DNA of 32,000 bases from a bacterium. GTDB taxonomy: Bacteria; UBP7; UBA6624; JBBIMK01. The position numbers and the translations under genes were made by a program. The stretch lies in contig JBBIMK010000002.1 in the NCBI GenBank assembly GCA_037444445.1, forward strand, positions 60,001 through 92,000, written 5' to 3'. Under the pieces are notes generated by a model that was not told the origin of the DNA, searched no databases, and saw only the letters and a list, made by a program, of their open reading frames with translations. Positions 1-20,893 of the stretch are shown one piece after another. The first letter of the stretch is position 1, and each line of letters begins with the position of its first letter.

Positions 1-2315
1 TAGGGTTTATCAATCAAGAGCGGGCTTACCAGGCCCTCACCCTCGGCGTCCGAATGCCAGAGGGAGGTTACAATATTTTTGTTTCCGGGCCACCGGAAAC
101 GGGCAGAAGAACCATGGTTCAGGCTTACCTGGAGGAGATAGCCGCTCGGGAATCCACTCCCCCCGATTTGTGTTATGTGTATAATTTTGAAGACCCGAAT
201 AAACCAAAAGCCATTAGCCTTCCCGCTGGCAAAGGAACTCTCCTGGCAAAGGATATGGAGAGCCTGGTGCGAGACTTAAAAACAAAATTGCCGGAAACCC
301 TCCAGAGCAAAGATTATGAAGGACGCTTGACACCCATTTTGAAGAAAAGTCAGGAGGAGCAGGAAAGTTTGTTTGAACAGTTGAAACAACGAGCGCTGAA
401 AAGAGGATTGATGATTCAGAGCACCAAAACCGGAATGGAAGTGATCCCCTTACTGGAAAATCGTCCCATCAGTCAAGAGGAGTTTGAGCAACTGCCCGAT
501 GAAAAAAGGAAGGAAATTTTAGAGAATCAAGAAGAGATAGAGGAATTGATACGCTCTTTCCTCAGAAAAATTAAAGAATTGCAACAGAAAGCCAAGGAAC
601 GCATTGAAAAAGTTAATGAGGATGTGATATCCTTTATTGTTCAGCCGTTTTTTGACGATTTAATGAGCAAATATGGGGGGATTTCTGAGGTGGCGAAATA
701 TCTGGAAGAAGTCCGCACCCATATCCTGTCTCATATTCGGGATTTTCTTCCCTCATCGGAAACCCCATTGCCCTTTCCCACGCCGGAAAAATCCCTTTCT
801 GAATACTCTGTGAATGTGATAGTGGATAACGGGCATTTAATGGGTGCGCCTGTGATTTTTGAAACCAATCCCACTTATTACAATCTGTTTGGAAAGATTG
901 AAAAGAAGCCTTATCTGGGCGGTCTCTACAGCGATTTTACGATGATTCGCGCCGGAAGCCTACACCGCGCCAATGGCGGATACCTCCTGGTCTATGCCCG
1001 AGAAGTACTGATGAACCCTGGAACCTACGATTCTCTGAAACGCGCCATAAAATTCAGTCAGATAACCATAGAAGACCTGGCGGAAACCCTGGGTCTCATC
1101 CCCACCACAGGGCTCAAACCCGAACCCATTCCTCTTCGTGTGAAAGTCATTATGATTGGCTCTCCTGCTATTTATCATCTTCTCAGCACTTATGACGAGG
1201 ATTTTCATCGCACTTTCAAGGTTCGTGCCGATTTTGACTCGGTGATGGAAAATAATGAAAGATACTTGAGGAGCCTGTATCATTTTGTCATTCGGGTAAT
1301 TCGGGAAGATGGCTTGCTCCCTATGAGCGCCACCGGGGTGGCGAGACTGGCTGAACATATGGTCCGAATGAGTGGAACGAAGGACAAATTGACGGCTCGT
1401 TTCGGAGCCATACGAGATGTCATCCGCGAAGCCTCCTTCTATGCTGAGCAATGGGGAGCGAAAGTCATTACCTCGGACCATATTCAACACGCGTTAGAGC
1501 AAAGGGTTTACCGCTCCAATTTAATTGAGGAAAAAATTCTGGAGATGATTCAAAAAAATCAGATTTTACTGGATGTGCGTGGGAAGGCGGTAGGGCAGGT
1601 GAATGGACTCTCCGTCTACCAAATTGGAGATTTTTCTTTCGGTCGTCCTTCCCGTATCACCGCTCAAACCTTCGTCGGTCAATCGGGGGTCGTTGACATT
1701 GAGCGAGAGGTGGAACTCTCCGGGCCCGTTCACCAGAAAGGGGTGCTGATTTTAAGTGGATTCCTGGGTGGACGCTTTGCCCAAAACTTCCCTCTCACAC
1801 TTTCCGCCACTCTCTGCTTTGAGCAATCCTATACGGAAGTGGAGGGCGATAGCGCCTCAGCCGCTGAACTCTTTGCTCTGCTGTCCAGGCTCTCCAATAT
1901 CCCTCTCCGACAAGATATCGCCGTCACTGGCTCTATTAACCAAAATGGAGAAATTCAACCCATCGGGGGCGTCAATGAGAAAATTGAAGGCTTCTTCAAA
2001 ACCTGTAAACTCACCGGCCTCACAGGCTCTCAAGGGGTTATCATCCCCAGGCAAAATCTCCAGGATTTGATGTTAAACCAGGAAGTGATAGACGCCGTGA
2101 AAGAAGGAAAATTCCATATCTATCCGATCTCTACTGTGGAAGAAGGAATAGAAATCCTGACAGGGGTTGAAGCCGGACAGATAGACGAAAAGGGAAAATA
2201 TTCTCCTGGCACCGTCTATGGTGCTATCCAACAACAATTGAAAAAATACCGGGACAGGATGGTGGCGCTGGAAAGAAAACGCCAGAAGAAGTCCCACTCA
2301 CGAAAAAAAAATTAA
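1..2315 (+). CDS. Lon-like protease (LonC/LonB family), 5'-partial at the window edge
   Basis: The reading frame is open from position 3. GFINQERAYQALTLGVR precedes the track's Met, so the gene starts upstream of the window. The AAA-like N-domain has a degenerate P-loop, GPPETGRRT. The C-terminal Lon proteolytic domain carries the Ser-Lys dyad context VEGDSASAAE ... GGVNEKIEGFF. Confidence 0.85.
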   Translation, partial: GFINQERAYQALTLGVRMPEGGYNIFVSGPPETGRRTMVQAYLEEIAARESTPPDLCYVYNFEDPNKPKAISLPAGKGTLLAKDMESLVRDLKTKLPETLQSKDYEGRLTPILKKSQEEQESLFEQLKQRALKRGLMIQSTKTGMEVIPLLENRPISQEEFEQLPDEKRKEILENQEEIEELIRSFLRKIKELQQKAKERIEKVNEDVISFIVQPFFDDLMSKYGGISEVAKYLEEVRTHILSHIRDFLPSSETPLPFPTPEKSLSEYSVNVIVDNGHLMGAPVIFETNPTYYNLFGKIEKKPYLGGLYSDFTMIRAGSLHRANGGYLLVYAREVLMNPGTYDSLKRAIKFSQITIEDLAETLGLIPTTGLKPEPIPLRVKVIMIGSPAIYHLLSTYDEDFHRTFKVRADFDSVMENNERYLRSLYHFVIRVIREDGLLPMSATGVARLAEHMVRMSGTKDKLTARFGAIRDVIREASFYAEQWGAKVITSDHIQHALEQRVYRSNLIEEKILEMIQKNQILLDVRGKAVGQVNGLSVYQIGDFSFGRPSRITAQTFVGQSGVVDIEREVELSGPVHQKGVLILSGFLGGRFAQNFPLTLSATLCFEQSYTEVEGDSASAAELFALLSRLSNIPLRQDIAVTGSINQNGEIQPIGGVNEKIEGFFKTCKLTGLTGSQGVIIPRQNLQDLMLNQEVIDAVKEGKFHIYPISTVEEGIEILTGVEAGQIDEKGKYSPGTVYGAIQQQLKKYRDRMVALERKRQKKSHSRKKN

Positions 2316-2334: not shown

Positions 2335-3102
2335 ATGATGAAAGAGATGAAGATGAGAAAATGGATGTTCACCTCCATTGGGGTGGCTGTTCTGTTTGCA
2401 GGAATTTCTTCCTTTCTTCAGGCTGCTTCGGATGGAGCAGGAAAGAAAACTTACGATACTTACTGTAAAATCTGCCACGGTGAAAAGGGGCTCGGAGATG
2501 GAACCGCTGGCAAAGCCCTGAAACCCACTCCCTTTGATTTCACGGACCGAGAGAGCATGCGAAGGTTCTCGGATGATTATCTAAAAATGGTAATTACCAG
2601 AGGGAAAAAAGAGGCGCTGGTAAAACCCGGGAAAGGATATTCTCCCCTCATCATGCCCGGTTTTGAGAAAGAATTATCAAAGGCTCAGGTCAAATCCCTG
2701 ATAAAAATGGTCCGAGCGATTCAGAAAGATAAGCCTGTAAACCTGGCAAAGGACGAAAAATTTCAGAGCCAATTCCAGACAGAATACCAACTTTACATAA
2801 AGAAATGTGCCCGCTGCCACGGCGATAACGCAGAAGGAAATGGTCCGGACACTCAAACCAAAGAAAAACAACCACCGTTTATGCCCCTCCCTCCAGACTG
2901 GCGGAATGACCAGCGGATGAAAAGATATACGGACGACATCCTGGAAGAACTCATAGAAAAAGGAATCACAGAGGCTATGAAAAAAGGGTATTTCACCATG
3001 GTTGGATTCGGTGCCTCCGTGAAAGAATCTGACCTACCTGCTCTCATCGCCTACCTCCGAAGTTTTTCTGCCCCTCCACCCTCAGCCGCAAAGGGAAAGT
3101 AG
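2335..3102 (+). CDS. Secreted diheme c-type cytochrome (two class-I-like domains)
   Basis: N-terminal signal peptide (MRKWMFTSIGVAVLFAGISSFLQA). Two CxxCH motifs, CKICH and CARCH, each followed about 60-80 aa later by a Met-containing stretch (PLIMPGF, YFTMVGF). The exact start among ATGs 2335, 2338, 2347 and 2353 is uncertain. Confidence 0.85.
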   Translation: MMKEMKMRKWMFTSIGVAVLFAGISSFLQAASDGAGKKTYDTYCKICHGEKGLGDGTAGKALKPTPFDFTDRESMRRFSDDYLKMVITRGKKEALVKPGKGYSPLIMPGFEKELSKAQVKSLIKMVRAIQKDKPVNLAKDEKFQSQFQTEYQLYIKKCARCHGDNAEGNGPDTQTKEKQPPFMPLPPDWRNDQRMKRYTDDILEELIEKGITEAMKKGYFTMVGFGASVKESDLPALIAYLRSFSAPPPSAAKGK

Positions 3103-3124
3103 CCTGATGCTTCCGAGATAATCC

Positions 3125-4834
3125 TTATTGATTTTCGCCGGAAGGATGACAGGTCGCACACATCTCGTTTAATATATCGGCAGGCAATTTTTTTCCGGGT
3201 TCGTGGCAAGTAGCACACTCTACACCTGCATCAAAATGCTGAGAATGAGAAAACTGCTTTTCAAGAAACGAGATGGACTTTTCCGGTCCCTTTCCATGGC
3301 AATCAGTGCAGTTGAGTTTTGCCTTCTGATGGTGACAGGAATTGCATTGAGGGCGAGTCACTACTTTTTTCTTGCCCGGTTTGTGGGGTTCACCATGACA
3401 TTCTGTGCATTTCAATTTTGCTTGAATCACATGACGAGCGTGGGGATATTCCAGGCTATCAAAGGTTTTCACTGTAACATTCTCGGCACCGATGTGACAG
3501 ATAAGACACTCCACAGTGTAAGGCACTTCTGGCCAGATGGGCGGGCGTTCCGGCAGTCCTGCCTCTCGTAGCGCCTGATTCATCCAGGCCTGGGATGCTG
3601 TCAGAATGGCTTTGGTATACCCGATGTTGTGAGTGCCTTTTGCCTCCCGAATGAGTAAAAGATTGTGCCGAACTTGTTCAAGAATCCGTTGAACATTTTT
3701 CCTGGGAGAGGAAGAGAGGATATTTCGGACGGTTTCAAATTCTGCATTGGCGGCACTCAGGTTTTTCTCCACCAGCATCTTCCAGCCCTGGAATACCGGG
3801 CGAATGTCTTCACCATGGCATTTGACGCAGGATTCGGGACTGGCTTTATAAGTTTCACCCACTGGAATTGTATGGCAGGCTTTGCAATCCACCTGGGCGA
3901 GGAACATGGGGTCGGGCTTGCTCTCCACCCCCATTGCCCCCAGCCCTCTATAGAATTGTTTCACGAGAGTATGCTTGTCCTGGTGACAACTGGAACATTC
4001 TTCTGGAAGTACCTCCAGCGCTGCCTGTCGGGAATGAAGGATCTCCGTGTGGCAATTTAAGCATTCTATCTTGGTCTCCGTCACATGCTTCATATGAAGG
4101 TAGATATGGTCATCAATCCGCTCCAGTCTTTCAGGCTCATTATGACAGGACAGGCATCGCTCCTTTGGAACCGTTCCATCCCCCACCACAACTTTGGCGT
4201 GGCAGTGGAGGCAATCCAGGTGCTTTTCTACCGCATCTTTGTGATTAAAATAAGGCGTTTGAATCCGCATCCCTTCAGATTCCGGCGCATGGCAGAGATT
4301 GCAGTTTGCCGTTTTTTCCCCCAGTTCCACTTCCTTAAAATGACAAAGATAACAGGTGGTTGGAGTGACACTTACATGAGTTCCCTGGACAATCTGGGAA
4401 TGACAGGAGGTGCATCGGAGGACTTTCCCTCTGCGCATCTGGGTGAGATGAGGTTTATGGTCAAAGACCACCCCACTAAAGTTCACCTTTCCTTCCAGAA
4501 TTCGGGTTTCATGGCAACCGGAACGCAGGCAGGAAGCATTTTCCACCTGGGCCCAGGGCAGAGGCCCTGCCGTTCCTGTAAAATACTGCACCATCATAGA
4601 TAACCCCTGAAATTTCGCTGAAATTTCATTCCGCACTCCTGGCGTATAATGACAATCGGTGCAGGGAATCTTACTGTGGGAAGAGGTCCTCCAGGAAGTT
4701 ACATAAGGTTTCATAATATGGCAGGACCCGCAGAAGGAAGGCAAGGAGGTAACATACACCAGTCCTGAGAAAAGTATAAAGATCGTTGCGAAAATTAGTC
4801 CCGCAAGGACGACGCCCCGCTTCAGACGCTTCAT
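3125..4834 (-). CDS. Membrane-anchored multiheme cytochrome c with 18 heme-binding motifs and an NrfH/NapC/NirT-type N-terminus
   Basis: One N-terminal TM helix is followed by CGSCHIM ... SSH ... CTDCH, the NapC/NirT/NrfH signature including CXXCHXM. I count 17 CxxCH plus one CX4CH (CLRSGCH) in 569 aa. SD AGAGGTG lies upstream of the ATG. Confidence 0.9.
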   Translation of the reverse strand: MKRLKRGVVLAGLIFATIFILFSGLVYVTSLPSFCGSCHIMKPYVTSWRTSSHSKIPCTDCHYTPGVRNEISAKFQGLSMMVQYFTGTAGPLPWAQVENASCLRSGCHETRILEGKVNFSGVVFDHKPHLTQMRRGKVLRCTSCHSQIVQGTHVSVTPTTCYLCHFKEVELGEKTANCNLCHAPESEGMRIQTPYFNHKDAVEKHLDCLHCHAKVVVGDGTVPKERCLSCHNEPERLERIDDHIYLHMKHVTETKIECLNCHTEILHSRQAALEVLPEECSSCHQDKHTLVKQFYRGLGAMGVESKPDPMFLAQVDCKACHTIPVGETYKASPESCVKCHGEDIRPVFQGWKMLVEKNLSAANAEFETVRNILSSSPRKNVQRILEQVRHNLLLIREAKGTHNIGYTKAILTASQAWMNQALREAGLPERPPIWPEVPYTVECLICHIGAENVTVKTFDSLEYPHARHVIQAKLKCTECHGEPHKPGKKKVVTRPQCNSCHHQKAKLNCTDCHGKGPEKSISFLEKQFSHSQHFDAGVECATCHEPGKKLPADILNEMCATCHPSGENQ

Positions 4835-4904
4835 ATCAACACCTCTATCTCACCTTCTGAAGAAAAAACACTTTTCATAATTCACTTCCAATCCTGTCAT
4901 CGTT

Positions 4905-4910
4905 ATCATA
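4905..4910 (-). promoter_or_regulatory. Candidate -10 hexamer (TATGAT on the minus strand) for the 18-heme cytochrome gene
   Basis: The reverse complement of ATCATA is TATGAT, 5/6 to TATAAT. It implies a TSS near 4898, about 64 nt upstream of the ATG at 4834. Confidence 0.3.
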
Positions 4911-4932
4911 CATCCCTTCAAATAGATAAAAG

Positions 4933-4946
4933 TTGATAAATATCAG
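4933..4946. promoter_or_regulatory. FNR/CRP-family-type inverted repeat TTGAT-N4-ATCAG
   Basis: TTGATAAATATCAG matches 9/10 of the TTGAT-N4-ATCAA consensus. It lies in the divergent intergenic region between the two multiheme cytochrome transcription units. Its centre falls at -41.5 relative to the TSS implied by the minus-strand TATGAT box. Confidence 0.4.
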
Positions 4947-4993
4947 GGAAAAAGGAAATAAAAATCATAATTCTGTTTTTTTGAAAGTGTTAG

Positions 4994-4999
4994 TATAAT
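4994..4999 (+). promoter_or_regulatory. Candidate -10 hexamer TATAAT for the pentaheme/Rieske/cyt b operon
   Basis: A perfect TATAAT in the AT-rich divergent region. The -35 at 17-nt spacing (TTCTGT) is weak. Confidence 0.3.
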
Positions 5000-5061
5000 A
5001 ACGATGAGTGTGCCTGCGACAAAGGATTAGTATCGGTAAAGTTTGAATGGGAGGGGAGGAA

Positions 5062-6252
5062 ATGAACCGGGCGAAAGGAGAAAAATTTTTATTCACCACA
5101 TGGCTTTCCGGGAAAAATGGAAAGATATGGTGCGGGGCTTTCCTCTTCACTATTTCATTGCTGATAGCGGCAGAACGCACCAAAAGTTCTTTGCAGAGTA
5201 GTAAGGAATGCGGAAAATGCCACCGAGACATTTATGAAGTATGGAAAGAATCTCTGCATGCCCTCTCTCACTCGGACCCAATTTATCAAGCATCTTATCA
5301 AAAAACCTATACGAATACGAAAGGTGAAGCCCGCAAAATCTGCAACCCCTGCCATGCCCCTGCTTCTCTCGTCAACAGCGATTATGATGTAGAACTTCCC
5401 CTCACTCAAGAAGGTATCCTTTGCGACTTCTGCCATTCCGTGAAAAGCATAGAGTTGAAAAAAGGGCTAAACCGAATCACCCTGGACCTCGGTGACACGA
5501 AACGAGGTCCTATCTCTTTTCCCAAACAGTATGGGTCATTACGGAAATATCCTCACGGTGTAGAGTATTCTCCTCTTTTCACAGATGCACTATTTTGCGC
5601 TTCCTGCCATGAGTTCGTGAACGATGCAGGCGTGAAAGTCCTCAGCACTTATTCTGAGTGGAAAGACTCTCCTTATGTGAAAAAGGGCATCACCTGTCAG
5701 AAGTGCCATATGCCTCTGATTGAAGGGAAAATCGTTATCACTGCTGAAGAGCGTGTCGGCAAGGTGAACCTCCACAAAATCTCGGGTGGAAGTTCACTGG
5801 AACAATTACAAAAGGCCGTGCAGGTTGAGATTACAGATACCCGGTGGGAGAAAGAGGGGCTCTGGATAGGCGTGACGGTCACCAATGTAGGAGCAGGGCA
5901 TAAAGTTCCCACCGGTCTTCCCCTGAAGAAATTGACCCTGAAGGTTCGCGTCACACTCCCGGGTGAAGTCGCAAGAGAGCAGGAAAGAGCCTACTCTCTA
6001 TCTTTTACTGATTTGAGTGGCAAGCCTGTGGAGGATATTGGAAAATTGATGGACCCTACCTCCAGCGTGTCTCTGGCTGGCGATAATCGCATCTCTCCGG
6101 AAGAAACGCGGGAAGAGATTTTTCTCTTCCCTGTGCCCGAAAAAAGGGGGGTGAAAGTGGAAGCCTTCATTCAATATGAATTTAATGTTATGCTGTTGGA
6201 GCCCCGATATATACGCATAAAAATTGCCGAGACTTCTGCGGAGGTAAAGTGA
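5062..6252 (+). CDS. Pentaheme c-type cytochrome with a non-heme C-terminal domain
   Basis: Five CxxCH motifs (CGKCH, CNPCH, CDFCH, CASCH, CQKCH) sit in the first ~230 aa after a hydrophobic anchor or signal. The C-terminal ~150 aa has no heme motif and contains NVGAGHKVPTGLP. I prefer the start at 5062 (GGGAGG 7 nt upstream); the track start at 5047 is the alternative. Confidence 0.85.
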   Translation: MNRAKGEKFLFTTWLSGKNGKIWCGAFLFTISLLIAAERTKSSLQSSKECGKCHRDIYEVWKESLHALSHSDPIYQASYQKTYTNTKGEARKICNPCHAPASLVNSDYDVELPLTQEGILCDFCHSVKSIELKKGLNRITLDLGDTKRGPISFPKQYGSLRKYPHGVEYSPLFTDALFCASCHEFVNDAGVKVLSTYSEWKDSPYVKKGITCQKCHMPLIEGKIVITAEERVGKVNLHKISGGSSLEQLQKAVQVEITDTRWEKEGLWIGVTVTNVGAGHKVPTGLPLKKLTLKVRVTLPGEVAREQERAYSLSFTDLSGKPVEDIGKLMDPTSSVSLAGDNRISPEETREEIFLFPVPEKRGVKVEAFIQYEFNVMLLEPRYIRIKIAETSAEVK

Positions 6253-6253
6253 G

Positions 6254-6667
6254 ATGAAAGAAACGCGTCGCCATTTCCTCGCCTGGCTCGTTCGCATCAC
6301 TGGATTGGCAACCCTTGCAGGCTTCCTTTATCCTTTCATTCTTTACTTAAAGCCTTTGTCCTCCAGCATCTCGGCACAAACTGTAGAAATCCCCCTGGAG
6401 GAAGTCCCTCCGGGTGAAGCAAAAATTGTGTCATACAGGGGAAATCCGACCATTGTGGTTCACGCCAAAGAAGGAATGGTAGCCCTTTCGGCAGTGTGCA
6501 CTCATCTGGGGTGTCTGGTTCGCTGGGAAAAAGCCAGGGGAGAATTATTTTGCCCCTGCCATGCCGGGCGGTTTGATTTGACCGGTAAGGTTCTTGGAGG
6601 GCCCCCACCCAGGCCTCTACCGAAAGTTCCGGTAAAAGTTGTCGGTTCCTCCATCATTCTGGGATGA
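6254..6667 (+). CDS. Rieske [2Fe-2S] iron-sulfur subunit of a cytochrome bc-type complex
   Basis: Twin-arginine-like N-terminus (TRRHFLAWL) plus a TM helix. Both Rieske boxes are present: CTHLGC and CPCHAGRF. The start is 1 nt after the preceding stop, with SD GGAGGT. Confidence 0.9.
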   Translation: MKETRRHFLAWLVRITGLATLAGFLYPFILYLKPLSSSISAQTVEIPLEEVPPGEAKIVSYRGNPTIVVHAKEGMVALSAVCTHLGCLVRWEKARGELFCPCHAGRFDLTGKVLGGPPPRPLPKVPVKVVGSSIILG

Positions 6668-7731
6668 AGATTTCCCTGCGTCACAAGCTGTTTCACTGGT
6701 TTGATGAGCGGGTAGGGTGGGGTGAAATTGCCAAAAAACATCTCCACGGATATCTTCTGCCAGAAAATATCAATGCCTGGTATTCCATGGGGTCAATCCT
6801 GTTAGCCCTTTTCGGGCTTCAGGTGCTCACCGGTGTGCTTCTGATGATATATTACCGTCCCACTACAGAAGACGCCTTTTCCAGCATTCGGTCGATTATG
6901 ACGGAAGTCCCCTACGGATGGCTCATTCGGAGCATCCATGCCGCCGGCGCCAATGTGATGATTTTCATTCTCTTCCTCCACATGCTGAGCACTCTTTTTA
7001 TGGGGTCTTACAAAAAACCTCGTGAATTAAACTGGGTTACCGGGTGTGTGCTTTTCGCTTTCACTCTGGGACTTGCCCTTTCCGGGTATCTCCTTCCCTG
7101 GAGTCAACTTTCCTACTGGGCAACCACGGTAGCCACGAATACGGTTACTACCATTCCGCGATGGGGAGACACACTCCTGCTATGGGTTCGCGGGAGCGCC
7201 CAGGTCTCCCAGGCAACGCTCGGGCGCTTCTTCGCCCTTCATGTGGCAGTCCTTCCACTCCTCGTTATCCTGTTCATCCTTCTACATCTTTTCTTCGTTC
7301 GCTCCACCGGTATCTCCACTCCTCCTACCCTCGCAACCCAACCCAGAAAAATCATCCCATTTTACCCGGATTACCTACTGGAAGACCTGAAAATGATTTA
7401 TCTGGCTCTGGCTCTGGTGGCATTCCTGGTGTTTTTCTACCCCGGCTTCGTCTTTCCAGAAGATTCGCTCATCCCGGCAGACCCATTCAGCACCCCGGAG
7501 CATATCAAACCGGAGTGGTATTTTCTGGCAAATTATCAACTTCTCCGTCTGATTCCGAATAAAATCCTGGGTATCCTGGTGCAGGTTGTGGCAGGGCTAT
7601 TTATCGTTCTTTTACCATTTATTGACCGGAGTCCGGAGCGCCACCCTCTCCGACGCCCAGCCTTTACTCTCCTGTCTATCCTTGCCCTCCTGGGTTATAT
7701 CGGCCTCATCTATGCGGGTCTGAAAGAATAA
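6664..7731 (+). CDS. Cytochrome b (fused b6 + subunit IV type) of a Rieske/cyt b complex
   Basis: It shares an ATGA overlap with the Rieske gene. Helix B has H-x13-H (SIHAAGANVMIFILFLH) and helix D has H-x14-H (LHVAVLPLLVILFILLH). YYRPT and PEWYF motifs are present. Length is 355 aa. Confidence 0.92.
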   Translation: MKISLRHKLFHWFDERVGWGEIAKKHLHGYLLPENINAWYSMGSILLALFGLQVLTGVLLMIYYRPTTEDAFSSIRSIMTEVPYGWLIRSIHAAGANVMIFILFLHMLSTLFMGSYKKPRELNWVTGCVLFAFTLGLALSGYLLPWSQLSYWATTVATNTVTTIPRWGDTLLLWVRGSAQVSQATLGRFFALHVAVLPLLVILFILLHLFFVRSTGISTPPTLATQPRKIIPFYPDYLLEDLKMIYLALALVAFLVFFYPGFVFPEDSLIPADPFSTPEHIKPEWYFLANYQLLRLIPNKILGILVQVVAGLFIVLLPFIDRSPERHPLRRPAFTLLSILALLGYIGLIYAGLKE

Positions 7732-7734
7732 ATC

Positions 7735-8556
7735 ATGCGAAAAATCTCCTGGCTTGCTATTTTCTGCTTTTCACTATTTGTTCTTTTCACACCGGGATGG
7801 GCCGCTGAAGCACAGGAAGAAGAAGTTTGCGTAACCTGTCATGAGATGTTCAAAGGGGATATGCCCAATTTATATCATCCGGTAGAGCTCTGGCGACAAA
7901 GTTCTCACAAAGTCCAGGGAGTCACCTGCACCGGCTGTCACGGGGGAAATCCAAAAGACGAAGCGGAATCTATGAGCACACCCGATTTCATCGGCAAGCC
8001 CTCTGCCTCCACGATTCCATTTATGTGCGGGAAATGCCACACCGACATCAGGGAAGAATACTTATCCGGCGTGCATTCTTTTACATCTGGCTCCCGCCGC
8101 CCCACCTGCATCACCTGCCACAATAGTCATAATATCCAACCCCCGATCCTGGAAAATATCATTGAACATCAGTGCGTCTCCTGCCATAAAGCGGAAGAAA
8201 TCACTTATTTTCAATCTTTCATACTCTCTGTGAACCAGGACGCTGAAAAGGGAAATGAAGAGCTGAAAATGCTACATCATCACTGGGTAGACATTTCCAT
8301 TTACCAGAAGATACTGAACGCCTGGAAAAATAGCACCCGGGTGAAACTCATTCATCTGTCTGAACTGGATAAAGTGAAAAGTGAAACAGAAAAAATTTCG
8401 GCCTCTCTGAAGGAAATTCACCAGAAATATGAGATTATACTCCGGAACGAAGCATTGAAGAAGAAAACAGGAAAATTCACTATCGCCTTTTTACTTCTCT
8501 CGGCGGTGGCCCTCCACTTTTACTACCGGGAAGTGGAAAAGAGCCGAAAAAGGTAA
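7735..8556 (+). CDS. Pentaheme c-type cytochrome with a C-terminal membrane anchor; likely the cytochrome c subunit of the bc-type complex
   Basis: Signal peptide, then five CxxCH motifs (CVTCH, CTGCH, CGKCH, CITCH, CVSCH), a charged helical region and a C-terminal TM helix (FTIAFLLLSAVALHFYY). It starts 3 nt after the cyt b stop. Confidence 0.85.
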   Translation: MRKISWLAIFCFSLFVLFTPGWAAEAQEEEVCVTCHEMFKGDMPNLYHPVELWRQSSHKVQGVTCTGCHGGNPKDEAESMSTPDFIGKPSASTIPFMCGKCHTDIREEYLSGVHSFTSGSRRPTCITCHNSHNIQPPILENIIEHQCVSCHKAEEITYFQSFILSVNQDAEKGNEELKMLHHHWVDISIYQKILNAWKNSTRVKLIHLSELDKVKSETEKISASLKEIHQKYEIILRNEALKKKTGKFTIAFLLLSAVALHFYYREVEKSRKR

Positions 8557-8605
8557 AGCCCGGATTCTCTCGTGCACTCGCTTGCGATAAAATGATAGAA
8601 GGCGG

Positions 8606-9355
8606 ATGGACAAAGAGATTGTTCACACCGTAAAATCTTACGGCATTCTCCTCGTGTGGGTTTCCGCTATCCTTCTCGGCGTGGTGCTTCTTTTACTGGC
8701 GCTCCGTGGTAATCCTTACCATAGCGTAGAATTGGGCTACCGACAGGCTTCCGAAGTGGATGCCGGATTGAGAAGCCGTATACTCTTCGTCTCGTTCCCT
8801 CTGCTCTCCATTCTATTCTCATTTGCCAGCGCCTTTCTTCTGACCTACGATGGAATGAGAGATACGGAAAGTCTTGTATTATGGGGAAGATATGCCGTTA
8901 GCCGGGTAATTTTTCCCCGTCTACTTCTTTTTTTCACCTTCCTGATGGCAACAGCGTTGTTGATAATTCTTTTAATGGGGAATTTTTATACCGATGTTCC
9001 GGATGGAGCAATCTTTATGGCTTCCATAACCTCAGCCACCTATGTCGGTGGCATTTCAGCGGTCGTAAGTGGATTTTTCCGCAATCCGCTTGCAGGATTC
9101 CTTTTATCCTTGCTTCTCTCCGCTTACTTCGGTATTCTTCCATCCTCTGTCCCCGGAATAGAATCCCCCCTCAGAACTCTACTGGATCCATACTTTCTCC
9201 TGCACCACCCCAACTTGATTTCTGGAGAAGGTTTCATCTTTGGCAGGGAGGGTCCAGTGTTTCTGCTGAACCAGGGTTGGTGCTTTCTCATTGGCCTGGG
9301 GTTATTCTTTTACATTCTTCAATTTTTTCAGTTTTATAAGCGCCACTTCTTCTAA
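8606..9355 (+). CDS. Polytopic integral membrane protein of unknown function
   Basis: 249 aa with about 6 hydrophobic segments. It lies 49 nt downstream of the cytochrome operon on the same strand. I recognise no family motif. Confidence 0.6.
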   Translation: MDKEIVHTVKSYGILLVWVSAILLGVVLLLLALRGNPYHSVELGYRQASEVDAGLRSRILFVSFPLLSILFSFASAFLLTYDGMRDTESLVLWGRYAVSRVIFPRLLLFFTFLMATALLIILLMGNFYTDVPDGAIFMASITSATYVGGISAVVSGFFRNPLAGFLLSLLLSAYFGILPSSVPGIESPLRTLLDPYFLLHHPNLISGEGFIFGREGPVFLLNQGWCFLIGLGLFFYILQFFQFYKRHFF

Positions 9356-15501: not shown

Positions 15502-15531
15502 TTGACAATGCCTGAAAGATTGAATTACAAT
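15502..15531 (+). promoter_or_regulatory. Near-consensus sigma70-type promoter TTGACA-N18-TACAAT for the SNF2 gene
   Basis: TTGACA at 15502-15507, an 18-nt spacer, then TACAAT at 15526-15531. It overlaps the ORF-track's TTG start, which argues that the real start lies downstream. Confidence 0.55.
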
Positions 15532-15567
15532 AAGATGTTGGGACAGAACTTAAAGGAAGGAAAAGAA

Positions 15568-18420
15568 ATGGAAGAATTTAACTGGACGCAGCGAATCGTT
15601 GAGTTAAAGGAAGCGACTCCGGGGATTTTCATGGATGTTTCCTCCCTAAACGATTTCGTGGACATCAATCGGAAGGGGTGGATTTCTCCTCTTTATGATT
15701 TTCGGCTGAAGAATTATGCAGAATACCTGGGACGGCGACGGGATTTTAATGTTCTGATTTCTCCCCTATCCAGCCGTGCCTATCTCTTTTCCCATCAACT
15801 TGCAGTGACTTCTACTGTTATCCAGAAGATGGGTGGAAGGTCTATCTTGGCGGATGAGGTAGGGCTGGGGAAAACCATTGAATCCGGTATGATTATGAAG
15901 GAACTGCTACTCAGGAACCTGGTGAATCGGGTTCTCATTCTGGTTCCTGCCTCCCTTGTCACGCAATGGCAGGAAGAAATGCGACACCGCTTTAATGAAC
16001 ATTTCGTCATTTATGACACGGATAAGCGCAAAGAATTGGAAGAGAAGTACGGTGACGATAAAAACATCTGGGAATTGGAAACTCGGATTCTTGCTTCTCT
16101 CCATGTAGCCAAGCAGAGGCGTTACCGCGAGCAAATCCAAAAAATTCCCTGGGACCTGGTTATTGTGGATGAGGCGCACCGGTTGAAAAACTCTGCCACC
16201 CAGAATCATAAACTGGTGCAAGGCCTGAAAACCAAATATCTACTCTTGCTGACTGCTACCCCATTGCAAAACTATTTGATAGAACTTTATAACCTGGTTT
16301 CGCTGGTGGACAAAGAATTGTTAGGTGCCAAGAGCGGTTTCAAGCGGCGTTTTGAAGACCATTCTCAAGACCCGGTGGTTCTGGAAAAGTTAAAGAAGCG
16401 TCTGCGAAGAGTGATGATTCGGAATCGTCGGTGCGACATCGGCTCTGCTTTGAGTTTCGGAAAACGCCATGCGCTCACTCTGCAAGTAGAACTGGATGAA
16501 CCCAATCGGACTTTGTATAACCTGGCAAGCCGATATGCTCTGGAGGGTTACCGGAAGTCTATTGCAGCCAAAAATTCCACTTATGCTTTCTTCCTGATGC
16601 TGGTTCAGAGAATGCTCACCAGTTCCACTTCTGCTCTGGAGAAAACCCTCCAGAAGCGACTGGAAATGCTTCAAGAAGTCAAGCAAGGAAAACGGAAGAG
16701 CATTCGTCTACGGGATTTTATAGCTCAGGAACTGGAGGTCCGGGCTATAGAAGAGGAAGTAGTGGAGGATGACTCTTTCCTCTCAACTCTGGATGAGGAA
16801 ATAAAAGAAATTCAGAAGATTCTTCAGATTATTCCGAAAGTCGTCACCCATCCGAAACTTAATATTCTCGTGGAGATGCTGGACCGAATCTATCAGGAGT
16901 CAATGGATGCGAAAGTGGTGATTTTTACAGAATTCCGTTCTACGCAGGATTTTCTGGGCGTGGCTCTGAAGGAAAAGGGTTTTGATGTGGAAGTTTTCCA
17001 TGGAGGATTGTCGTTAAGGGAAAAAGATGCTGCCGTGGAGCGGTTTGAGGAGGAAGGCCAAATCCTGATTAGCACGGAGGCGGGAAGCGAAGGGCAAAAT
17101 CTCCAATTCAGCCACATTGTCGTGAACTATGACCTGCCCTGGAACCCGATGAAGGTGGAACAGCGTATCGGGCGAGTTCACCGCATCGGTCAAACCCAGG
17201 ATGTTCAAATCATTAACTTCTCCACAAGAGATACCGTGGAAGAGTACCTGCTCCGCATTCTGGAACATAAGATCGGGTTATTTAAGGAGGTAATGGGCGA
17301 CCTGGAAACTATTCTCGGGTATGTGGCGGGTGACACCAGTTTTGAACAACTTCTGATGGACCTCCTGGCAAAGAATTACTCGGAGAACGGTATCCGATTT
17401 GATGAAGTTTTTCAGAATTTGGAGGCGAGAATTGAAGCAGCCCAGAAAGAAGCCGACCTCTCCCTCCTGACCGACCTGAGCCAGCGCGGCATGAACCTTT
17501 CCCTGAAAGACCTTTTTCCGCATTTTGAGCAGTATACTCCCGGACGGGAAGAAATCTTCTATCGCCGATTCATGGATGAATACCTGGACAAATATAATGC
17601 CCTTACGGATAAATCGGATGAATACATTGCGTTTAATGTGCCTGGACATCAGGCTCACAGTTTCATTTTTTCTGATTTTATACGGGGGACAGTGAATCGT
17701 GAAATTGCTCTTGCCAAGCCCTACCTGGAGTTTATTGGAATCGGGCATAAATTTGTGGACGCAGCCATTCGGGAATCCCGAAATCTTCTTCCCGTTTCTG
17801 TAGGAAAAATTTCCAGAGACCTCCTGATGGATTATGGCATATACAACCCGGGTAACCAGGGTATTCTGGCTTCATTCCTCTCAGAATTGCGATGGACAAA
17901 CGGTGGAGAGGAGCGATTCTTTACAGCCTTCACCGATGGCAATGAGACGGTGATTCTGGAAGGACTGGAGGAACCTCTGATGTATCTGGATGAACTTCCT
18001 CCTCACTTTTGCTCTGATTTGCCCCTGGAACTGTTTCTGGATAAAATCCTGAAAAAACTTCGTGAGAAACTGGTGGAGGAACGCCAGCAACTCTTCAATC
18101 AACGGAATAAGGAGGCAGAAGAAATACGGACTTATATTTCAGATTACTACAGCGACTTACGCTATGATATTGAACTCCAGTTAGAAAAAGTCCAGATGGA
18201 GTCTCTGCAGATACGCAAGAAACGACAGCGTGTGGAATGGAGTGAAGAAGAAAACCTTGCCAGCCGTGAGACATCCCTGAAGCGTCTCCGGAACGAACTT
18301 TTTGCGGAGATGGTGAAGCTGAATGCCCGGGAGAAAGAGAAAATCCGTGAAATAGAGAAAAATCTTGGCATTACTGTTCACGCCAAACTTTTATCCATCG
18401 CTAAAGTCCGTATCTTTTAG
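15568..18420 (+). CDS. SNF2-family (Swi2/Snf2) DNA-dependent ATPase with a ~370-aa uncharacterised C-terminal region
   Basis: Helicase motifs: I LADEVGLGKT, II DEAHRLKN, III LLLTATPLQN, V STEAGSEGQNLQ, VI QRIGRVHRIGQ. I prefer the start at ATG 15568 (purine-rich AAGGAAGGAAAAG upstream, downstream of the promoter). The track start at 15502 lies inside the promoter. Confidence 0.9.
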   Translation: MEEFNWTQRIVELKEATPGIFMDVSSLNDFVDINRKGWISPLYDFRLKNYAEYLGRRRDFNVLISPLSSRAYLFSHQLAVTSTVIQKMGGRSILADEVGLGKTIESGMIMKELLLRNLVNRVLILVPASLVTQWQEEMRHRFNEHFVIYDTDKRKELEEKYGDDKNIWELETRILASLHVAKQRRYREQIQKIPWDLVIVDEAHRLKNSATQNHKLVQGLKTKYLLLLTATPLQNYLIELYNLVSLVDKELLGAKSGFKRRFEDHSQDPVVLEKLKKRLRRVMIRNRRCDIGSALSFGKRHALTLQVELDEPNRTLYNLASRYALEGYRKSIAAKNSTYAFFLMLVQRMLTSSTSALEKTLQKRLEMLQEVKQGKRKSIRLRDFIAQELEVRAIEEEVVEDDSFLSTLDEEIKEIQKILQIIPKVVTHPKLNILVEMLDRIYQESMDAKVVIFTEFRSTQDFLGVALKEKGFDVEVFHGGLSLREKDAAVERFEEEGQILISTEAGSEGQNLQFSHIVVNYDLPWNPMKVEQRIGRVHRIGQTQDVQIINFSTRDTVEEYLLRILEHKIGLFKEVMGDLETILGYVAGDTSFEQLLMDLLAKNYSENGIRFDEVFQNLEARIEAAQKEADLSLLTDLSQRGMNLSLKDLFPHFEQYTPGREEIFYRRFMDEYLDKYNALTDKSDEYIAFNVPGHQAHSFIFSDFIRGTVNREIALAKPYLEFIGIGHKFVDAAIRESRNLLPVSVGKISRDLLMDYGIYNPGNQGILASFLSELRWTNGGEERFFTAFTDGNETVILEGLEEPLMYLDELPPHFCSDLPLELFLDKILKKLREKLVEERQQLFNQRNKEAEEIRTYISDYYSDLRYDIELQLEKVQMESLQIRKKRQRVEWSEEENLASRETSLKRLRNELFAEMVKLNAREKEKIREIEKNLGITVHAKLLSIAKVRIF

Positions 18421-18485: not shown

Positions 18486-19322
18486 ATGACGAAAAAAGTC
18501 ATCACAATGATTTCAGTGTTAGTAATCAGCTGGGGGGTGCTTGGCTCCACTGCATTTGGAGAACACCCCGGAAAAGGAGCAGGGAAATCTGAAGGAAGAG
18601 AGCATCCTCGGTTCTTTTTCCAGAAGATGGATACCAACCAGGATGGAAAAATCTCCATGGAAGAATGGCATCAAGGCTGGAAAAAACTGTTTGACCTGGT
18701 TGATACCAATCAGGACCATTTTTTAGTCCGTGAGGAAGCAAAAGCCTTTGCTGAAAAAATACGAACAAGTGGCGGTAACATTGAAGAGAAATTCGCCAGG
18801 ATGGACAAGAACCAGGATGGAAAAATTACGCAGGACGAGTGGATAGGCCCCCCTGGGCTTTTCCACAATTTAGACCGTAACGGGGATGGAGCCATCACGA
18901 AGGATGAATATCCTGCCCCACAGAAGGAGGATGCCCTGGCACGATTCAAAAAGATGGATGCCAATGGAGACGGGAAAATCTCTAAAGAAGAATGGAAGGG
19001 GCCGGCTGAACTTTTTAACAAAATTGATGCCAATCAGGATAGCTCCTTAACCCCTGAGGAATTTCAGGAATTTCATAAGAAGTTGAAGAGGGACCAGACA
19101 AAGACGGAGCCAGGAGTAGAGCATGACATCTATGCCCAGTTCGACCGGATTGACCAGAATAAAGATGGCAAAATCTCCCCGGAGGAACTGGACGCCTGGG
19201 CGCATCAGCTTTTCTTAAAACTGGACCGAAACCAGGATGGAGTGTTAGAACCTTCGGACATGCCACTACAGGGACAGGGCATGCCACACCCCGCCGGACC
19301 ACGGGCAGGTAAGCACCGGTAA
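18486..19322 (+). CDS. Secreted multi-EF-hand calcium-binding protein (eight EF-hand loops)
   Basis: Signal peptide MTKKVITMISVLVISWGVLGSTAFG. Eight DxNxDGxIxxxE-type loops, e.g. DTNQDGKISMEE, DKNQDGKITQDE, DANGDGKISKEE, DQNKDGKISPEE. SD GGAGGTG. Confidence 0.85.
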   Translation: MTKKVITMISVLVISWGVLGSTAFGEHPGKGAGKSEGREHPRFFFQKMDTNQDGKISMEEWHQGWKKLFDLVDTNQDHFLVREEAKAFAEKIRTSGGNIEEKFARMDKNQDGKITQDEWIGPPGLFHNLDRNGDGAITKDEYPAPQKEDALARFKKMDANGDGKISKEEWKGPAELFNKIDANQDSSLTPEEFQEFHKKLKRDQTKTEPGVEHDIYAQFDRIDQNKDGKISPEELDAWAHQLFLKLDRNQDGVLEPSDMPLQGQGMPHPAGPRAGKHR

Positions 19323-19360: not shown

Positions 19361-19398
19361 AGGTGGAGGGAAAGGGAAGTGCCCTCCACCTTGTTTTA
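19361..19398 (+). terminator. Rho-independent terminator after the EF-hand gene
   Basis: A perfect 10-bp stem, AGGTGGAGGG / CCCTCCACCT, with an 11-nt loop. It is followed by TGTTTTAT and then GGGTTTTTT. Confidence 0.7.
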
Positions 19399-19439
19399 TG
19401 CGGGTTTTTTATCCACCCACTCACATTCCAGGCGGTGAA

Positions 19440-19445
19440 TATAAT
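19440..19445 (+). promoter_or_regulatory. Candidate -10 hexamer TATAAT immediately upstream of mnmE
   Basis: A perfect TATAAT ends 10 nt before the ATG at 19456, with no SD in between. It lies downstream of the terminator. Confidence 0.4.
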
Positions 19446-19455
19446 AAATAATGGG

Positions 19456-20876: not shown

Positions 20877-20893
20877 AGACATTGGGTAACAGG

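Follow-up and report, generated by a model that had tools for sequence, protein, structure and literature searches.

The four plus-strand genes g3–g6 (Table 1) probably encode a Cbc3-type menaquinol:multiheme-cytochrome oxidoreductase feeding a periplasmic heme network, with g3 as its electron-exit partner (probability about 0.65). This reading rests directly on the identity of the genes, on their motifs and homologies, on fold and on conserved synteny. The genes lie in the window (the whole 32-kb stretch of DNA that was analysed) within a region that is a genuine respiratory gene cluster.

Gene content and heme-binding sites

The profile search proposed in the earlier note was run on the proteins of g1–g7, and Pfam confirmed Rieske (PF00355), cytochrome b (Cytochrome_B and Cytochrom_B_C) and multiheme domains, together with a NapC/NirT domain at the N-terminus of g2. 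A six-frame scan of 2335–9355 revealed 29 CxxCH motifs, all in frame with four cytochrome genes, whereas shuffles of the same region yielded 0.4 on average and never more than 3. With one conserved CX4CH site, the number of heme sites came to 30. The total of 30 motifs (2 + 18 + 5 + 5) given in the earlier note was thus reproduced, although only 29 of the 30 are canonical, and its five c-type cytochrome genes were reduced to four. As had also been stated there, no terminal enzyme or outer-membrane conduit was found in the 32-kb window.

Table 1. Features of the cytochrome gene region
Feature	Position	Strand	Length	Heme-binding sites	Description
g1	2335–3102	+	255 aa	2 CxxCH	Diheme class-I cytochrome c
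g2	3125–4834	−	569 aa	17 CxxCH + one CX4CH	18-heme cytochrome
g2/g3 intergenic	4835–5046		212 nt		AT-rich, divergent
g3	5047–6252	+	401 aa	5 CxxCH	PHC-family pentaheme, first operon gene
g4	6254–6667	+	137 aa		Rieske [2Fe-2S] protein
g5	6664–7731	+	355 aa		Cytochrome b
g6	7735–8556	+	273 aa	5 CxxCH	Anchored pentaheme cytochrome c
g7	8606–9355	+	249 aa		Polytopic, ~6 transmembrane helices

The operon and its Cbc3-type core

The order of the operon is pentaheme g3, Rieske g4, cytochrome b g5 and anchored pentaheme g6. Its tight packing, which had been claimed earlier, could be confirmed by the junctions g3/g4 (TGA-G-ATG, 1 nt), g4/g5 (ATGA overlap) and g5/g6 (TAA-ATC-ATG, 3 nt). The unit is also conserved at other loci. 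No terminator-like sites above chance were detected between the operon genes. The g2/g3 intergenic region is presumed to be the promoter region of both genes, but only weak matches to sigma-70-like hexamers were present on both strands (plus, 4881–4909; minus, 5022–4995 and 4993–4964), and these do not speak for a function.

The g4 protein carries a twin-arginine signal/anchor (RRHFL) and the cluster motifs CTHLGC and CPCHAGRF. Its sequence motifs lack the Ser/Tyr pair, which raises the redox potential of Rieske clusters by hydrogen bonding (PMC12954380), and a low-potential chain is therefore favoured; judged from these motifs, the g4 cluster is probably low-potential. The g5 protein represents fused b6 and subunit IV with seven transmembrane helices, in which all four b-heme histidines are present (H92/H106, and H193/H208 with x14 spacing). 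The protein carries PEWY as its Qo motif at residue 283 and lacks the CxGG cysteine, so that no heme cn is expected. The earlier designation of this protein as b6-type holds for the H-x14-H spacing of helix D, but not for the fused seven-helix form and the missing heme cn cysteine, and the scores of g5 against bc1-type cytochromes b were equally good.

In the g6 protein, a signal peptide is followed by a long helical stretch and, at the C-terminus, by a hydrophobic anchor (FTIAFLLLSAVALHFYY); the gene holds the position of the cytochrome c1/f subunit. NCBIfam analysis gave a DmsE/MtrA-like match (43.9 bits), while BLASTP revealed 32% identity (E 2e-41) to CbcX of CP001124. The g5 protein was 54% identical to a Citrifermentans bemidjiense cytochrome b annotated as 'menaquinol oxidoreductase complex Cbc3, cytochrome b subunit'. 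Sequence comparison identifies Geobacter Cbc3 (CbcVWX) as a homologue of the g4–g6 core, and the Geobacter locus likewise comprises a Rieske protein, a cytochrome b and a 266-aa pentaheme cytochrome; g3 is an additional pentaheme gene ahead of this core. A further precedent is the Geobacter Cbc6/extKLMNOPQS cluster (2010, 2018), in which the Rieske protein (ExtO) and cytochrome b (ExtP) stand among 5-, 12-, 10- and 4-heme cytochromes, with the PHC-type pentaheme ExtKL leading. The view that the architecture was unrecognised was therefore abandoned. No biochemical characterisation of a Cbc3-type complex or of the PHC four-gene unit was found in the literature, and a 2026 review assigns no role to Cbc3. 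The layout is thus uncharacterised, yet it is a variation on the known Cbc3 arrangement and not a new architecture.

The PHC-family cytochrome g3

The g3 protein, for which the NCBI product starts five codons later (396 aa), shows a five-heme alpha-helical cap followed by a C-terminal Ig-like beta-sandwich. Its AF2 model (pLDDT 80) matched 5ZE8 in Foldseek with an E-value of 1.3e-18 and a TM-score of 0.67–0.70, and profile searches matched 5ZE8 (4e-31) and MccSep 9WT8 (8e-14). The score against NCBIfam ExtKL was 67.8 bits, under the cut-off of 250. The PHC fold family includes the Thermochromatium tepidum cytochrome c552 (PDB 5ZE8) and Geobacter ExtKL/MccSep, a selenoenzyme which reduces polysulfide and selenite with heme 2 as its active site. 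The GHxxPxG-x-P loop of the Ig-like domain is common to g3 and MccSep. However, C239 of MccSep is replaced by V198 in g3 and U325 by L291, and in 24 of 24 family members the two sites were occupied by I/V/L and L/I/M, respectively. Four conserved non-motif histidines (H71, H170, H243 and H285) are available for the five hemes of g3, while MccSep has bis-His ligation at four hemes and His/Cys ligation at heme 2.

The N-terminus of g3 is signal-like only. The T. tepidum c552 was reportedly described as soluble by Chen and colleagues in 2019, and by analogy g3 is probably soluble as well, so that it may act as a diffusible partner and not as a subunit.

Conservation of the PHC/Rieske/cytochrome b unit

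The order PHC, Rieske, cytochrome b and pentaheme could be found at ten or more further loci in several phyla (L005, L090, L091, L063, L069, L064, L071, L024, L043 and L027), and a g6 homologue was identified downstream of cytochrome b at L005, L063, L064, L071, L024, L043, L090 and L091. The earlier note had allowed that the order might prove widespread and already assigned; it occurs in many phyla, but no characterised complex is assigned to it. The complete g1–g7 arrangement was present only in the near-identical contigs L003 and L004.

Among the best 79 PHC loci from GTDB species genomes, Rieske and cytochrome b genes lay directly downstream of PHC in 22, directly upstream in 6 and elsewhere within 8 kb in 9 more. 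No Rieske/cytochrome b lay nearby at 40 of the 79 loci, many of which adjoin ACIII/Psr-like modules instead, and PHC is therefore a modular component that is not specific to the Rieske/cytochrome b complex. At L038, L020, L025, L034 and L040, PHC is the sole cytochrome c gene of a Rieske/b6/subunit IV operon, and operons with PHC as the only cytochrome c gene occur in some Nitrospinota/Nitrospirae. PHC and cytochrome b distances, compared at 31 linked loci, showed a modest rank correlation (rho 0.29, Mantel p ~0.001), part of which reflects species phylogeny.

Flanking genes g1, g2 and g7

The g1 protein has an N-terminal signal or anchor and two CcoP-like domains (CKICH and CARCH; PF13442 and PF00034). 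Its gene begins 19 nt past a Lon-like protease gene and converges on g2. The g2 gene is divergent from the operon; its product has a transmembrane helix at the N-terminus and combines an NrfH/NapC-like tetraheme quinol-dehydrogenase module with c3/c7/HmcA-like repeats. The N-terminus matched PF03264 (30.1 bits, cut-off 24.1) and NrfH in the PDB. The non-canonical site, C102-LRSG-C-H, and each of the 17 CxxCH motifs were kept in 21 of 21 aligned homologues, and distant homologues have 18 canonical motifs, so the count of 18 hemes is sound and the earlier description of an 18-heme quinol-dehydrogenase-like protein stands. Within this family of at least 1504 members, one gene lies between two Rieske/cytochrome b/multiheme modules (L087) and another adjoins such modules (L018), while relatives at L085 and L086 are next to a multiheme cytochrome c and a Ni_hydr_CYTB cytochrome b without a Rieske gene. 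Both g1 and g2 are tied to g3–g6 by proximity only.

The g7 gene follows g6 after 49 nt, as the earlier note had it, but it is nearly an orphan and probably no member of the complex. No Pfam or NCBIfam match was obtained, only 3 relatives were found among 1.84 billion representatives, and a 40% homologue sits after an ABC_tran ATPase gene. In every other lineage examined, g7 was absent downstream of the PHC/Rieske/cytochrome b unit.

Proposed electron flow and alternative readings

The mechanism is inferred from the bc1/b6f paradigm; subunit contacts, flow direction, the kind of quinone, the redox potentials and the terminal acceptor are likewise predictions. The two-heme g5 would oxidise menaquinol at its PEWY Qo site. 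One electron would pass to the Tat-exported, probably low-potential Rieske protein g4 and on to g6, which may replace cytochrome c1/f, while the second would travel across the membrane by way of hemes bL and bH in a Q cycle, so that the complex should conserve energy. As a general concern, multiheme bis-His cytochromes are usually low-potential, and the high-potential branch of the Q cycle therefore fits awkwardly. The periplasmic g3, most likely the dedicated electron-exit partner of g4–g6, would deliver electrons through a periplasmic multiheme network to acceptors encoded elsewhere, the likeliest candidates being sulfur compounds or metals. The g2 protein, whose family is repeatedly found beside Rieske/cytochrome b modules, may act as a second membrane-anchored, quinol-linked heme wire, and g1 as a possible higher-potential carrier.

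It is unlikely that g3 is itself the terminal enzyme, with the four genes forming a self-contained quinol:substrate oxidoreductase in which heme 2 reduces or oxidises a small periplasmic compound of S, Se or N, in the manner of NrfHA or the anammox Rieske/cytochrome b-HAO complexes. MccSep/ExtKL, the sole functionally characterised PHC member, is an enzyme whose fold and loop g3 shares; the distal position of heme 2 may be open or unusual, given four conserved histidines for five hemes; relatives of the unit adjoin Psr/Phs/Qrc-like Mo enzymes; and no other terminal enzyme is encoded in the window. Nevertheless, g3 lacks both catalytic residues of MccSep, and its closer structural relative, T. 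tepidum c552, has no reported activity. Reverse operation, in which sulfur compounds, Fe(II), nitrite or a partner organism supply periplasmic electrons that enter via the multiheme cytochromes and are driven uphill by the pmf, through Rieske/cytochrome b, into the quinone pool, appears improbable. PHC-linked Rieske/cytochrome b operons are common among Nitrospinota and Nitrospirota genomes, reverse electron transport via bc complexes was proposed for Nitrospina (PMC3578206) and a reversed Q cycle for the bc complex of Geobacter metallireducens (PMC4122944), and class-I cytochrome c genes, whose products are usually higher-potential, are nearby (g1) and adjoin such units at L023, L024 and L087. 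However, the Qo motif of g5 is the conventional PEWY and not the APWY variant tied to proposed reverse operation, the g4 cluster looks low-potential, the window contains no Sox, Sqr, Nxr, Cyc2 or similar oxidising enzyme, and the direction of flow is not readable from sequence.

A restricted reading, with only g3–g6 as the functional unit, g1 and g2 as independent respiratory cytochromes and g7 unrelated, is quite possible, although we lean somewhat against it. It is consistent with the co-orientation of g1 with the protease gene, the presumed divergent promoter of g2, the Rieske-free loci of the g2 family, the near-orphan g7 with its ABC-ATPase neighbour in a relative, and the confinement of the full gene set to two near-identical contigs. 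Association with a wider system is suggested by g2-family or other large multiheme genes co-oriented with Rieske/cytochrome b genes at L087, L018, L024 and L043, by the ext cluster, which joins a PHC and 12- and 10-heme cytochromes to Rieske/cytochrome b, and by the class-I cytochrome c genes, which lie upstream of PHC at L023 and L024.

Gene content and heme sites of the cluster

A six-frame scan of positions 2335-9355 revealed 29 CxxCH motifs, every one of them in frame with four cytochrome genes, while shuffled versions of the same sequence gave a mean of 0.4 motifs by chance. One further site, a CX4CH variant, was present in g2. This variant and the 17 canonical sites of g2 were each kept in 21 of 21 aligned homologues, and distant homologues carried 18 canonical motifs; the count of 18 hemes in g2 is therefore sound. 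The cytochrome cluster and the total of 30 heme sites described in the earlier note could thus be recovered, with two corrections: the c-type cytochrome genes number four, not five, and only 29 of the motifs are canonical. The genes are listed in the table together with several neighbouring genes.

The tight packing claimed for the operon g3-g6 was found exactly as described. The g3 gene ended 1 nt before g4, g4 and g5 shared an ATGA overlap, g6 started 3 nt after g5, and 49 nt separated g6 from g7. Scanning for promoters and terminators produced weak matches only, with terminators not in excess, and gave no basis for placing the ends of the operon. The window contained no tRNA, rRNA or Rfam elements.

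Genes of the cytochrome cluster and selected neighbouring genes (positions in the window)
Gene	Position (nt)	Strand	Product and features
Lon-like	54-2315	+	LonC/LonB-like protease; LonC_helical, AAA_32, LonB lid and Lon_C domains
g1	2335-3102	+	diheme cytochrome c; 255 aa; 2 CxxCH
g2	3125-4834	-	18-heme NrfH/NapC-anchored cytochrome; 569 aa; 17 CxxCH + one CX4CH
g3	5047-6252	+	pentaheme cytochrome of the PHC family; 401 aa; 5 CxxCH
g4	6254-6667	+	Rieske protein; 137 aa
g5	6664-7731	+	cytochrome b; 355 aa
g6	7735-8556	+	anchored pentaheme cytochrome; 273 aa; 5 CxxCH
g7	8606-9355	+	polytopic protein; 249 aa
SNF2	15502-18420		SNF2-family helicase; 972 aa
EF-hand	18486-19322	+	278 aa, almost all EF-hand repeats; EF-hand_5, 149 bits
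MnmE	19363-20826		MnmE
Archease/RtcB	20882-22800	+	archease/RtcB pair; archease gene overlaps start of the RtcB RNA ligase gene

The Rieske/cytochrome b core

Pfam analysis assigned g4 to the Rieske family (PF00355, 51 bits). The [2Fe-2S] boxes were CTHLGC at residue 82 and CPCH (within CPCHAGRF) at residue 100, and the N-terminus carried a twin-arginine motif (RRHFL). In other Rieske proteins, hydrogen bonds from a Ser and a Tyr to the cluster raise the potential (PMC12954380). As Gly and Phe replace these residues in g4, the protein is likely of low potential and of the menaquinol type.

The g5 protein matched PF00033 (Cytochrome_B, 208 bits) and PF00032 (Cytochrom_B_C, 76 bits) in Pfam. It is a single chain with seven predicted transmembrane helices, a PEWY Qo motif at residue 283 and two heme-ligand His pairs, H92-x13-H106 and H193-x14-H208, for hemes bL and bH. 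Histidines separated by 14 residues on helix D are a mark of b6-type proteins. The cysteine of the heme-cn motif (CxGG; PMC5600118) was not found in g5, in which the aligned segment reads WYSMGS. Based on the His pairs, the seven helices and this segment, g5 was read as a fused b6 and subunit IV with two hemes and without heme cn. Against solved structures, bc1-type cytochromes b scored as well (Aquifex 6KLS, 255 bits) as b6 and subunit IV (202 and 57 bits). The label "b6-type" given to the core in the earlier note is therefore half right: the helix D pair H193-x14-H208 agrees with it, while the fused gene, the missing heme-cn cysteine and the pentaheme c subunit do not. A true b6f or heme-cn complex is ruled out by the missing cysteine and the fused protein.

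A signal peptide and a hydrophobic C-terminal segment were present in g6 in addition to its five heme sites. The features expected of the bc1/b6f superfamily could thus be seen in the Rieske boxes and export signal, in the His pairs and PEWY motif of cytochrome b, and in a gene layout with adjacent Rieske and cytochrome b genes and a gene for a membrane-anchored c-type cytochrome.

The upstream pentaheme cytochrome

More than 500 relatives of g3 were present in the protein collection, nearly all of them unnamed. One solved structure was matched along the entire AlphaFold2 model of g3 (pLDDT 80), namely 5ZE8 (Foldseek E 1.3e-18, TM 0.67-0.70, 417 columns). It is cytochrome c552 of Thermochromatium tepidum, a pentaheme protein of low potential. 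A profile of the g3 family recovered 5ZE8 by hmmsearch at E 4.3e-31, and also 9WT8 (MccSep) at E 8e-14, with almost the entire protein aligned. These proteins belong to one pentaheme cytochrome fold family, referred to here as PHC.

MccSep is the Geobacter protein ExtKL (GSU2937-2936) and the sole characterised PHC; it was shown in late 2025 to be a polysulfide reductase essential for S0 respiration, and it is the key enzyme of elemental-sulfur respiration. Four of its hemes are bis-His and one is His/Cys. The catalytic site is heme 2, with C239 as ligand, and the selenocysteine U325 sits in the Ig-like domain, within a D-G-U-P loop. The study called its electron donor "unidentified". [quoted passage not shown] When the two proteins were aligned by HMMER, the loop GHKVPTGLP of g3 paired with GHSIPDGUP of MccSep; therefore, U325 corresponds to L291 of g3 (loop T289-G290-L291-P292) and C239 to V198. 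All 24 family members carried L, I or M at position 291, and all 24 carried I, V or L at position 198. As both catalytic residues are missing, g3 was rejected as an MccSep-type polysulfide reductase.

Among solved structures, cytochrome c552 comes nearest to g3; it has a five-heme cap and an Ig-like domain and likewise no selenocysteine, an Ala standing at the U325 position. However, its identity to g3 is just 22%, and c552 has a cysteine (GVPLCQTG, 5ZE8 residues ~228-236) that falls within one residue of the C239 position in the HMMER alignment, where g3 has no Cys. By its sequence, g3 is placed with the c552-like part of the PHC family, for which no function is assigned. Just four non-motif histidines were conserved in the g3 family for five hemes; the binding motif of heme 2 in g3 consists of C99, C102 and H103.

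Comparison with known Rieske/cytochrome b complexes

The closest named relatives of g5 were found in Geobacteraceae (53-56% identity), one of which, 54% identical, is annotated as [quoted passage not shown]. Cbc3 (CbcVWX; GSU1648-1650) shares with the window the order of Rieske, fused cytochrome b (~355-367 aa) and C-terminally anchored pentaheme cytochrome (~266-273 aa). The corresponding locus of Citrifermentans bemidjiense (CP001124) encodes a Rieske protein, a 367-aa cytochrome b and a 266-aa cytochrome with five CxxCH. The latter was 32% identical to g6 (E 2e-41), the long C-terminal helical part included, and the phmmer score of g4 against the Geobacter Rieske protein was 88 bits. In contrast to the window, the Geobacter locus has neither an upstream PHC gene nor an adjacent 18-heme gene. 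With a PHC gene 1 nt upstream of the Rieske gene, the window operon is not the three-gene operon of Cbc3. Cbc3 has been listed since about 2010 as a putative quinol:cytochrome c oxidoreductase of G. sulfurreducens, and a 2026 review still gave its role as unknown. The trio of Rieske protein, cytochrome b and anchored pentaheme cytochrome is a known and named kind that is biochemically uncharacterised.

The Geobacter cluster extKLMNOPQS, or Cbc6 (GSU2937-2930), published in 2010 and 2018, is led by extKL. It also encodes 12-, 10- and 4-heme cytochromes (the 4-heme one being the membrane-associated ExtS), the Rieske protein ExtO, the cytochrome b ExtP and the subunit IV-like ExtQ. It resembles the window in being PHC-led, with ~31 c-hemes around a Rieske/cytochrome b pair compared to 30 in the window. 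It differs in that ExtP and ExtQ are a split b6/subunit IV, whereas g5 is fused; in that ExtKL is a selenoprotein enzyme, whereas g3 has neither its Sec nor its Cys; and in that the ext cluster has a porin and a rhodanese-like protein (ExtHIJ), both absent from the window. The NCBIfam scores against ext families were all below the equivalog cut-offs: ExtKL, the best family for g3, reached 67.8 bits, far under its cut-off of 250, and ExtP reached 206 against 290.

Canonical bc1 and b6f complexes and their multiheme variants share with the window a core of Rieske protein and diheme cytochrome b and the PEWY motif, and in all of them electrons exit by way of a c-type cytochrome anchored in the membrane. 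The c subunit in the window is pentaheme, compared to monoheme c1, cytochrome f, or diheme or octaheme subunits elsewhere, and the window cytochrome b differs from canonical and multiheme variants in its seven helices without a heme-cn cysteine. NAD(P)-binding or HAO-like subunits are absent from the window. Multiheme partners of Rieske/cytochrome b have been documented in anammox bacteria (R/b complexes), Nitrospina and Methylomirabilis, and an octaheme type is shared by Nitrospina, Kuenenia and Methylomirabilis. Long cytochromes b encoded in large, conserved operons with unknown function had already been pointed out by Dibrova et al. (2017). The statement in the earlier note that the architecture was not recognised proved too strong, since the core is that of Cbc3, the PHC-led theme of ~30 hemes is that of Cbc6/ext, and multiheme partners are on record. 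In the literature searched, no published description was found of a Cbc3-type core with a PHC gene in the operon. Alternative complex III could be ruled out, as genes for ActB (Mo-pterin-like/FeS), ActC (NrfD-like) and the pentaheme ActA were absent from the window.

Distribution of the four-gene unit and neighbourhoods of PHC genes

The window locus is real, conserved and uncharacterised. In two near-identical contigs (L003 and L004), the arrangement was preserved in full, with the Lon-like gene at one end and LarA at the other. JGI metagenomes 3300010938 and 3300003892 are among the sources of the contigs most similar to the window. The same unit was carried by three contigs of unrelated origin, metagenomic or MAG, namely L005, L090 and L091 (Nitrospirae), with 54-59% identity in cytochrome b; each consisted of a PHC gene (~392-409 aa), a Rieske gene, a fused cytochrome b gene and a pentaheme cytochrome gene (~264-285 aa).

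At least 573 GTDB species genomes encode g3 relatives, and the neighbourhoods of the best 79 PHC loci in these genomes were compared. Among these 79, Rieske and cytochrome b genes lay directly downstream of the PHC gene in 22, directly upstream in 6 and within 8 kb in 9, while 40 had none. The complete unit with a 5-heme homologue of g6 was found in Dadabacteria (L063, L069), Ignavibacteriales (L064), Thermodesulfobacteriota (L071), Nitrospiria (L024) and Nitrospinota (L043, L027). Every carrier of the unit identified, those from Ignavibacteriales, Nitrospinota and Dadabacteria included, is a metagenome-assembled genome. In five other Nitrospinota/Nitrospirae loci (L038, L020, L025, L034, L040), no cytochrome c gene other than that of the PHC accompanied the Rieske, b6 and subunit IV genes. 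In locus L026 (7809-11868), PHC genes flanked the Rieske/b6/subunit IV genes on both sides. Distances among PHCs and among cytochromes b were modestly correlated over 31 linked loci (rho 0.29, Mantel p ~0.001).

PHC genes that were unlinked to Rieske/cytochrome b often adjoined modules resembling alternative complex III or Psr (L030, L044, L045, L047, L082, L084, L016, L049). These modules encoded an FeS protein starting MARWGMVIDLDKCTACQAC, an NrfD-like membrane protein and an 800-870-aa Tat-exported Mo-pterin-like protein, some with a 5-heme ActA-like cytochrome. The linked and unlinked loci together indicate that PHC is a modular periplasmic component and a repeated companion of quinol-oxidising membrane complexes. 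In the three unrelated contigs (L005, 1053-6108; L090, 1-3086; L091, 8466-12451), the four-gene unit itself adjoined a Psr/Phs/Qrc-like module of Mo-bisPGD, FeS and NrfD proteins, and L005 and L090 encoded a TorD-like chaperone too. The Mo subunits of L005 and L091 were scanned against NCBIfam, that of L090 being cut by the locus end; PhsA was the best match for both, QrcB followed closely for L005, and every score stayed below cut-off. Such neighbours suggest a link to sulfur-compound respiration; the window itself has no such module.

The PHC gene of L027, a Nitrospinota MAG, contained an in-frame stop. Selenocysteine was ruled out there, as the codon is TAG (2111-2113) and replaces the invariant E204 of an S-E-W motif; it is likely a sequencing error or a pseudogene.

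The 18-heme cytochrome

Assessment of the g2 sequence revealed a transmembrane helix (residues 8-26) followed by a NapC/NirT/NrfH tetraheme module (PF03264, 30.1 bits, cut-off 24.1) and then c3/c7/HmcA-like repeats. The N-terminus matched the solved NrfH structure 2J7A_C (E 2.8e-7). Scores against the equivalog families were below cut-off for NrfH (TIGR03153, 51 bits against 134) and TorC (20.6 against 455), and g2 differs from NapC/NirT/NrfH proteins in bearing 14 further hemes. The g2 family has at least 1504 members of 570-610 aa, all 18 sites being conserved, and is annotated as "cytochrome c3 family protein" only. A literature search for an 18-heme NapC-type cytochrome gave nothing relevant.

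Members of the g2 family could be found near other cytochrome b genes. In a Blastocatellia contig (L087), a g2 homologue lies between two Rieske/cytochrome b/multiheme modules, and in L018 a family member is co-oriented with such modules. In L085 and L086, it follows genes for a multiheme cytochrome c and a Ni_hydr_CYTB-type cytochrome b, and no Rieske protein is encoded. The genes of L087 (3996-13796) run on one strand, with a multiheme cytochrome fused to Ni_hydr_CYTB, a Rieske/cytochrome b/456-aa multiheme module, the 18-heme g2 homologue and a second such module, Rieske/cytochrome b/454-aa multiheme; ahead of this array lie genes for two monoheme cytochromes c and for a C554-like cytochrome.

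Proposed function of the complex

Rieske/cytochrome b complexes are life's main energy-conserving quinol oxidases, and to our knowledge their mechanism has been worked out almost entirely on versions whose c subunit is monoheme c1 or cytochrome f. The products of g3-g6 probably form a menaquinol:multiheme-cytochrome c oxidoreductase working by a Q cycle, a reading to which we give a probability of about 0.65. In such a complex, g6 would be the anchored equivalent of c1 or f, g3 a dedicated soluble or peripheral exit partner, and g2 a parallel quinol-linked heme wire. The reading draws on protein identities, motifs, fold and conserved synteny, from which we infer the contacts, the direction of electron flow, the potentials and the acceptor. 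Sulfur compounds would be the most attractive class of acceptor, because the unit adjoins the Psr/Phs/Qrc-like module in three relatives and the characterised PHC is a polysulfide reductase; for the window, this amounts to a hint.

Other readings were weighed against the same evidence. Cys/Sec-less PHCs such as g3 could have an open heme 2 and a catalytic activity of their own, and g3 would then be a terminal enzyme rather than an exit partner; with the MccSep catalytic residues replaced throughout the family, this is unlikely. Operation of the complex in reverse, taking electrons up, is a still slimmer prospect. A narrower claim, that g1, g2 and g7 work independently of the operon, has a good deal more going for it and is possible at somewhat under even odds; g2 lies on the opposite strand, and its link to g3-g6 is plausible on grounds of proximity.

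The locus represents an operon type conserved across several phyla, in which electrons would leave through a pentaheme subunit and a PHC-fold pentaheme cytochrome. We know of no purified member of this operon type. How a Q cycle would run with a low-potential multiheme acceptor branch is the question raised. The cluster indicates that the organism has a periplasmic multiheme respiratory chain of an anaerobic style. A broader proposal, which we advance tentatively and consider rather doubtful, is that PHCs serve as cognate electron-exit partners in a whole class of Rieske/cytochrome b complexes, widespread but undescribed, and that Rieske/cytochrome b is the missing donor of MccSep. In the Nitrospinota-type operons with a PHC gene as sole cytochrome c gene, the PHC would then take the functional place of cytochrome c1 or f. 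If true, by extension ExtO/ExtP would be the electron donor of this sulfur-respiring selenoenzyme in Geobacter, and the recurrent synteny of PHC and Rieske/cytochrome b genes provides a concrete, testable candidate for that donor.

Other genes of the window

The diheme cytochrome g1 is of class I, and its gene comes directly after the Lon-like gene. Genes for similar class-I cytochromes recurred in L023 and L024, on the upstream side of the PHC gene, and in L087. The gap between the Lon-like gene and g1 is 19 nt, and the pairing of these two genes was kept in L003 and L004.

No family could be assigned to g7 using Pfam and NCBIfam. It is a near-orphan: comparison with 1.84 billion representative proteins gave just 3 relatives, at 77%, 40% and 29% identity. 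On a 2-kb contig (L088), the gene of the 40% relative comes after one for an ABC-transporter ATPase, and no similarity was found between g7 and an unannotated membrane protein that follows an ABC ATPase in L086. A conserved extra subunit was ruled out for g7, which was found after the unit in no other lineage examined and has few relatives; g7 is accordingly left out of the proposed system.

The rest of the window was of a housekeeping nature, with genes for LarA-like, NHL-repeat, aldehyde dehydrogenase, aldo-keto reductase, SNF2 helicase, EF-hand, MnmE, archease/RtcB, TPR, cysteine desulfurase-like, ComEC and citrate synthase proteins. This gene content bears out the earlier observation that the window encodes no terminal reductase or outer-membrane conduit. 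The EF-hand gene comes after that of the SNF2-family helicase, and the MnmE gene is located just upstream of the archease/RtcB pair.
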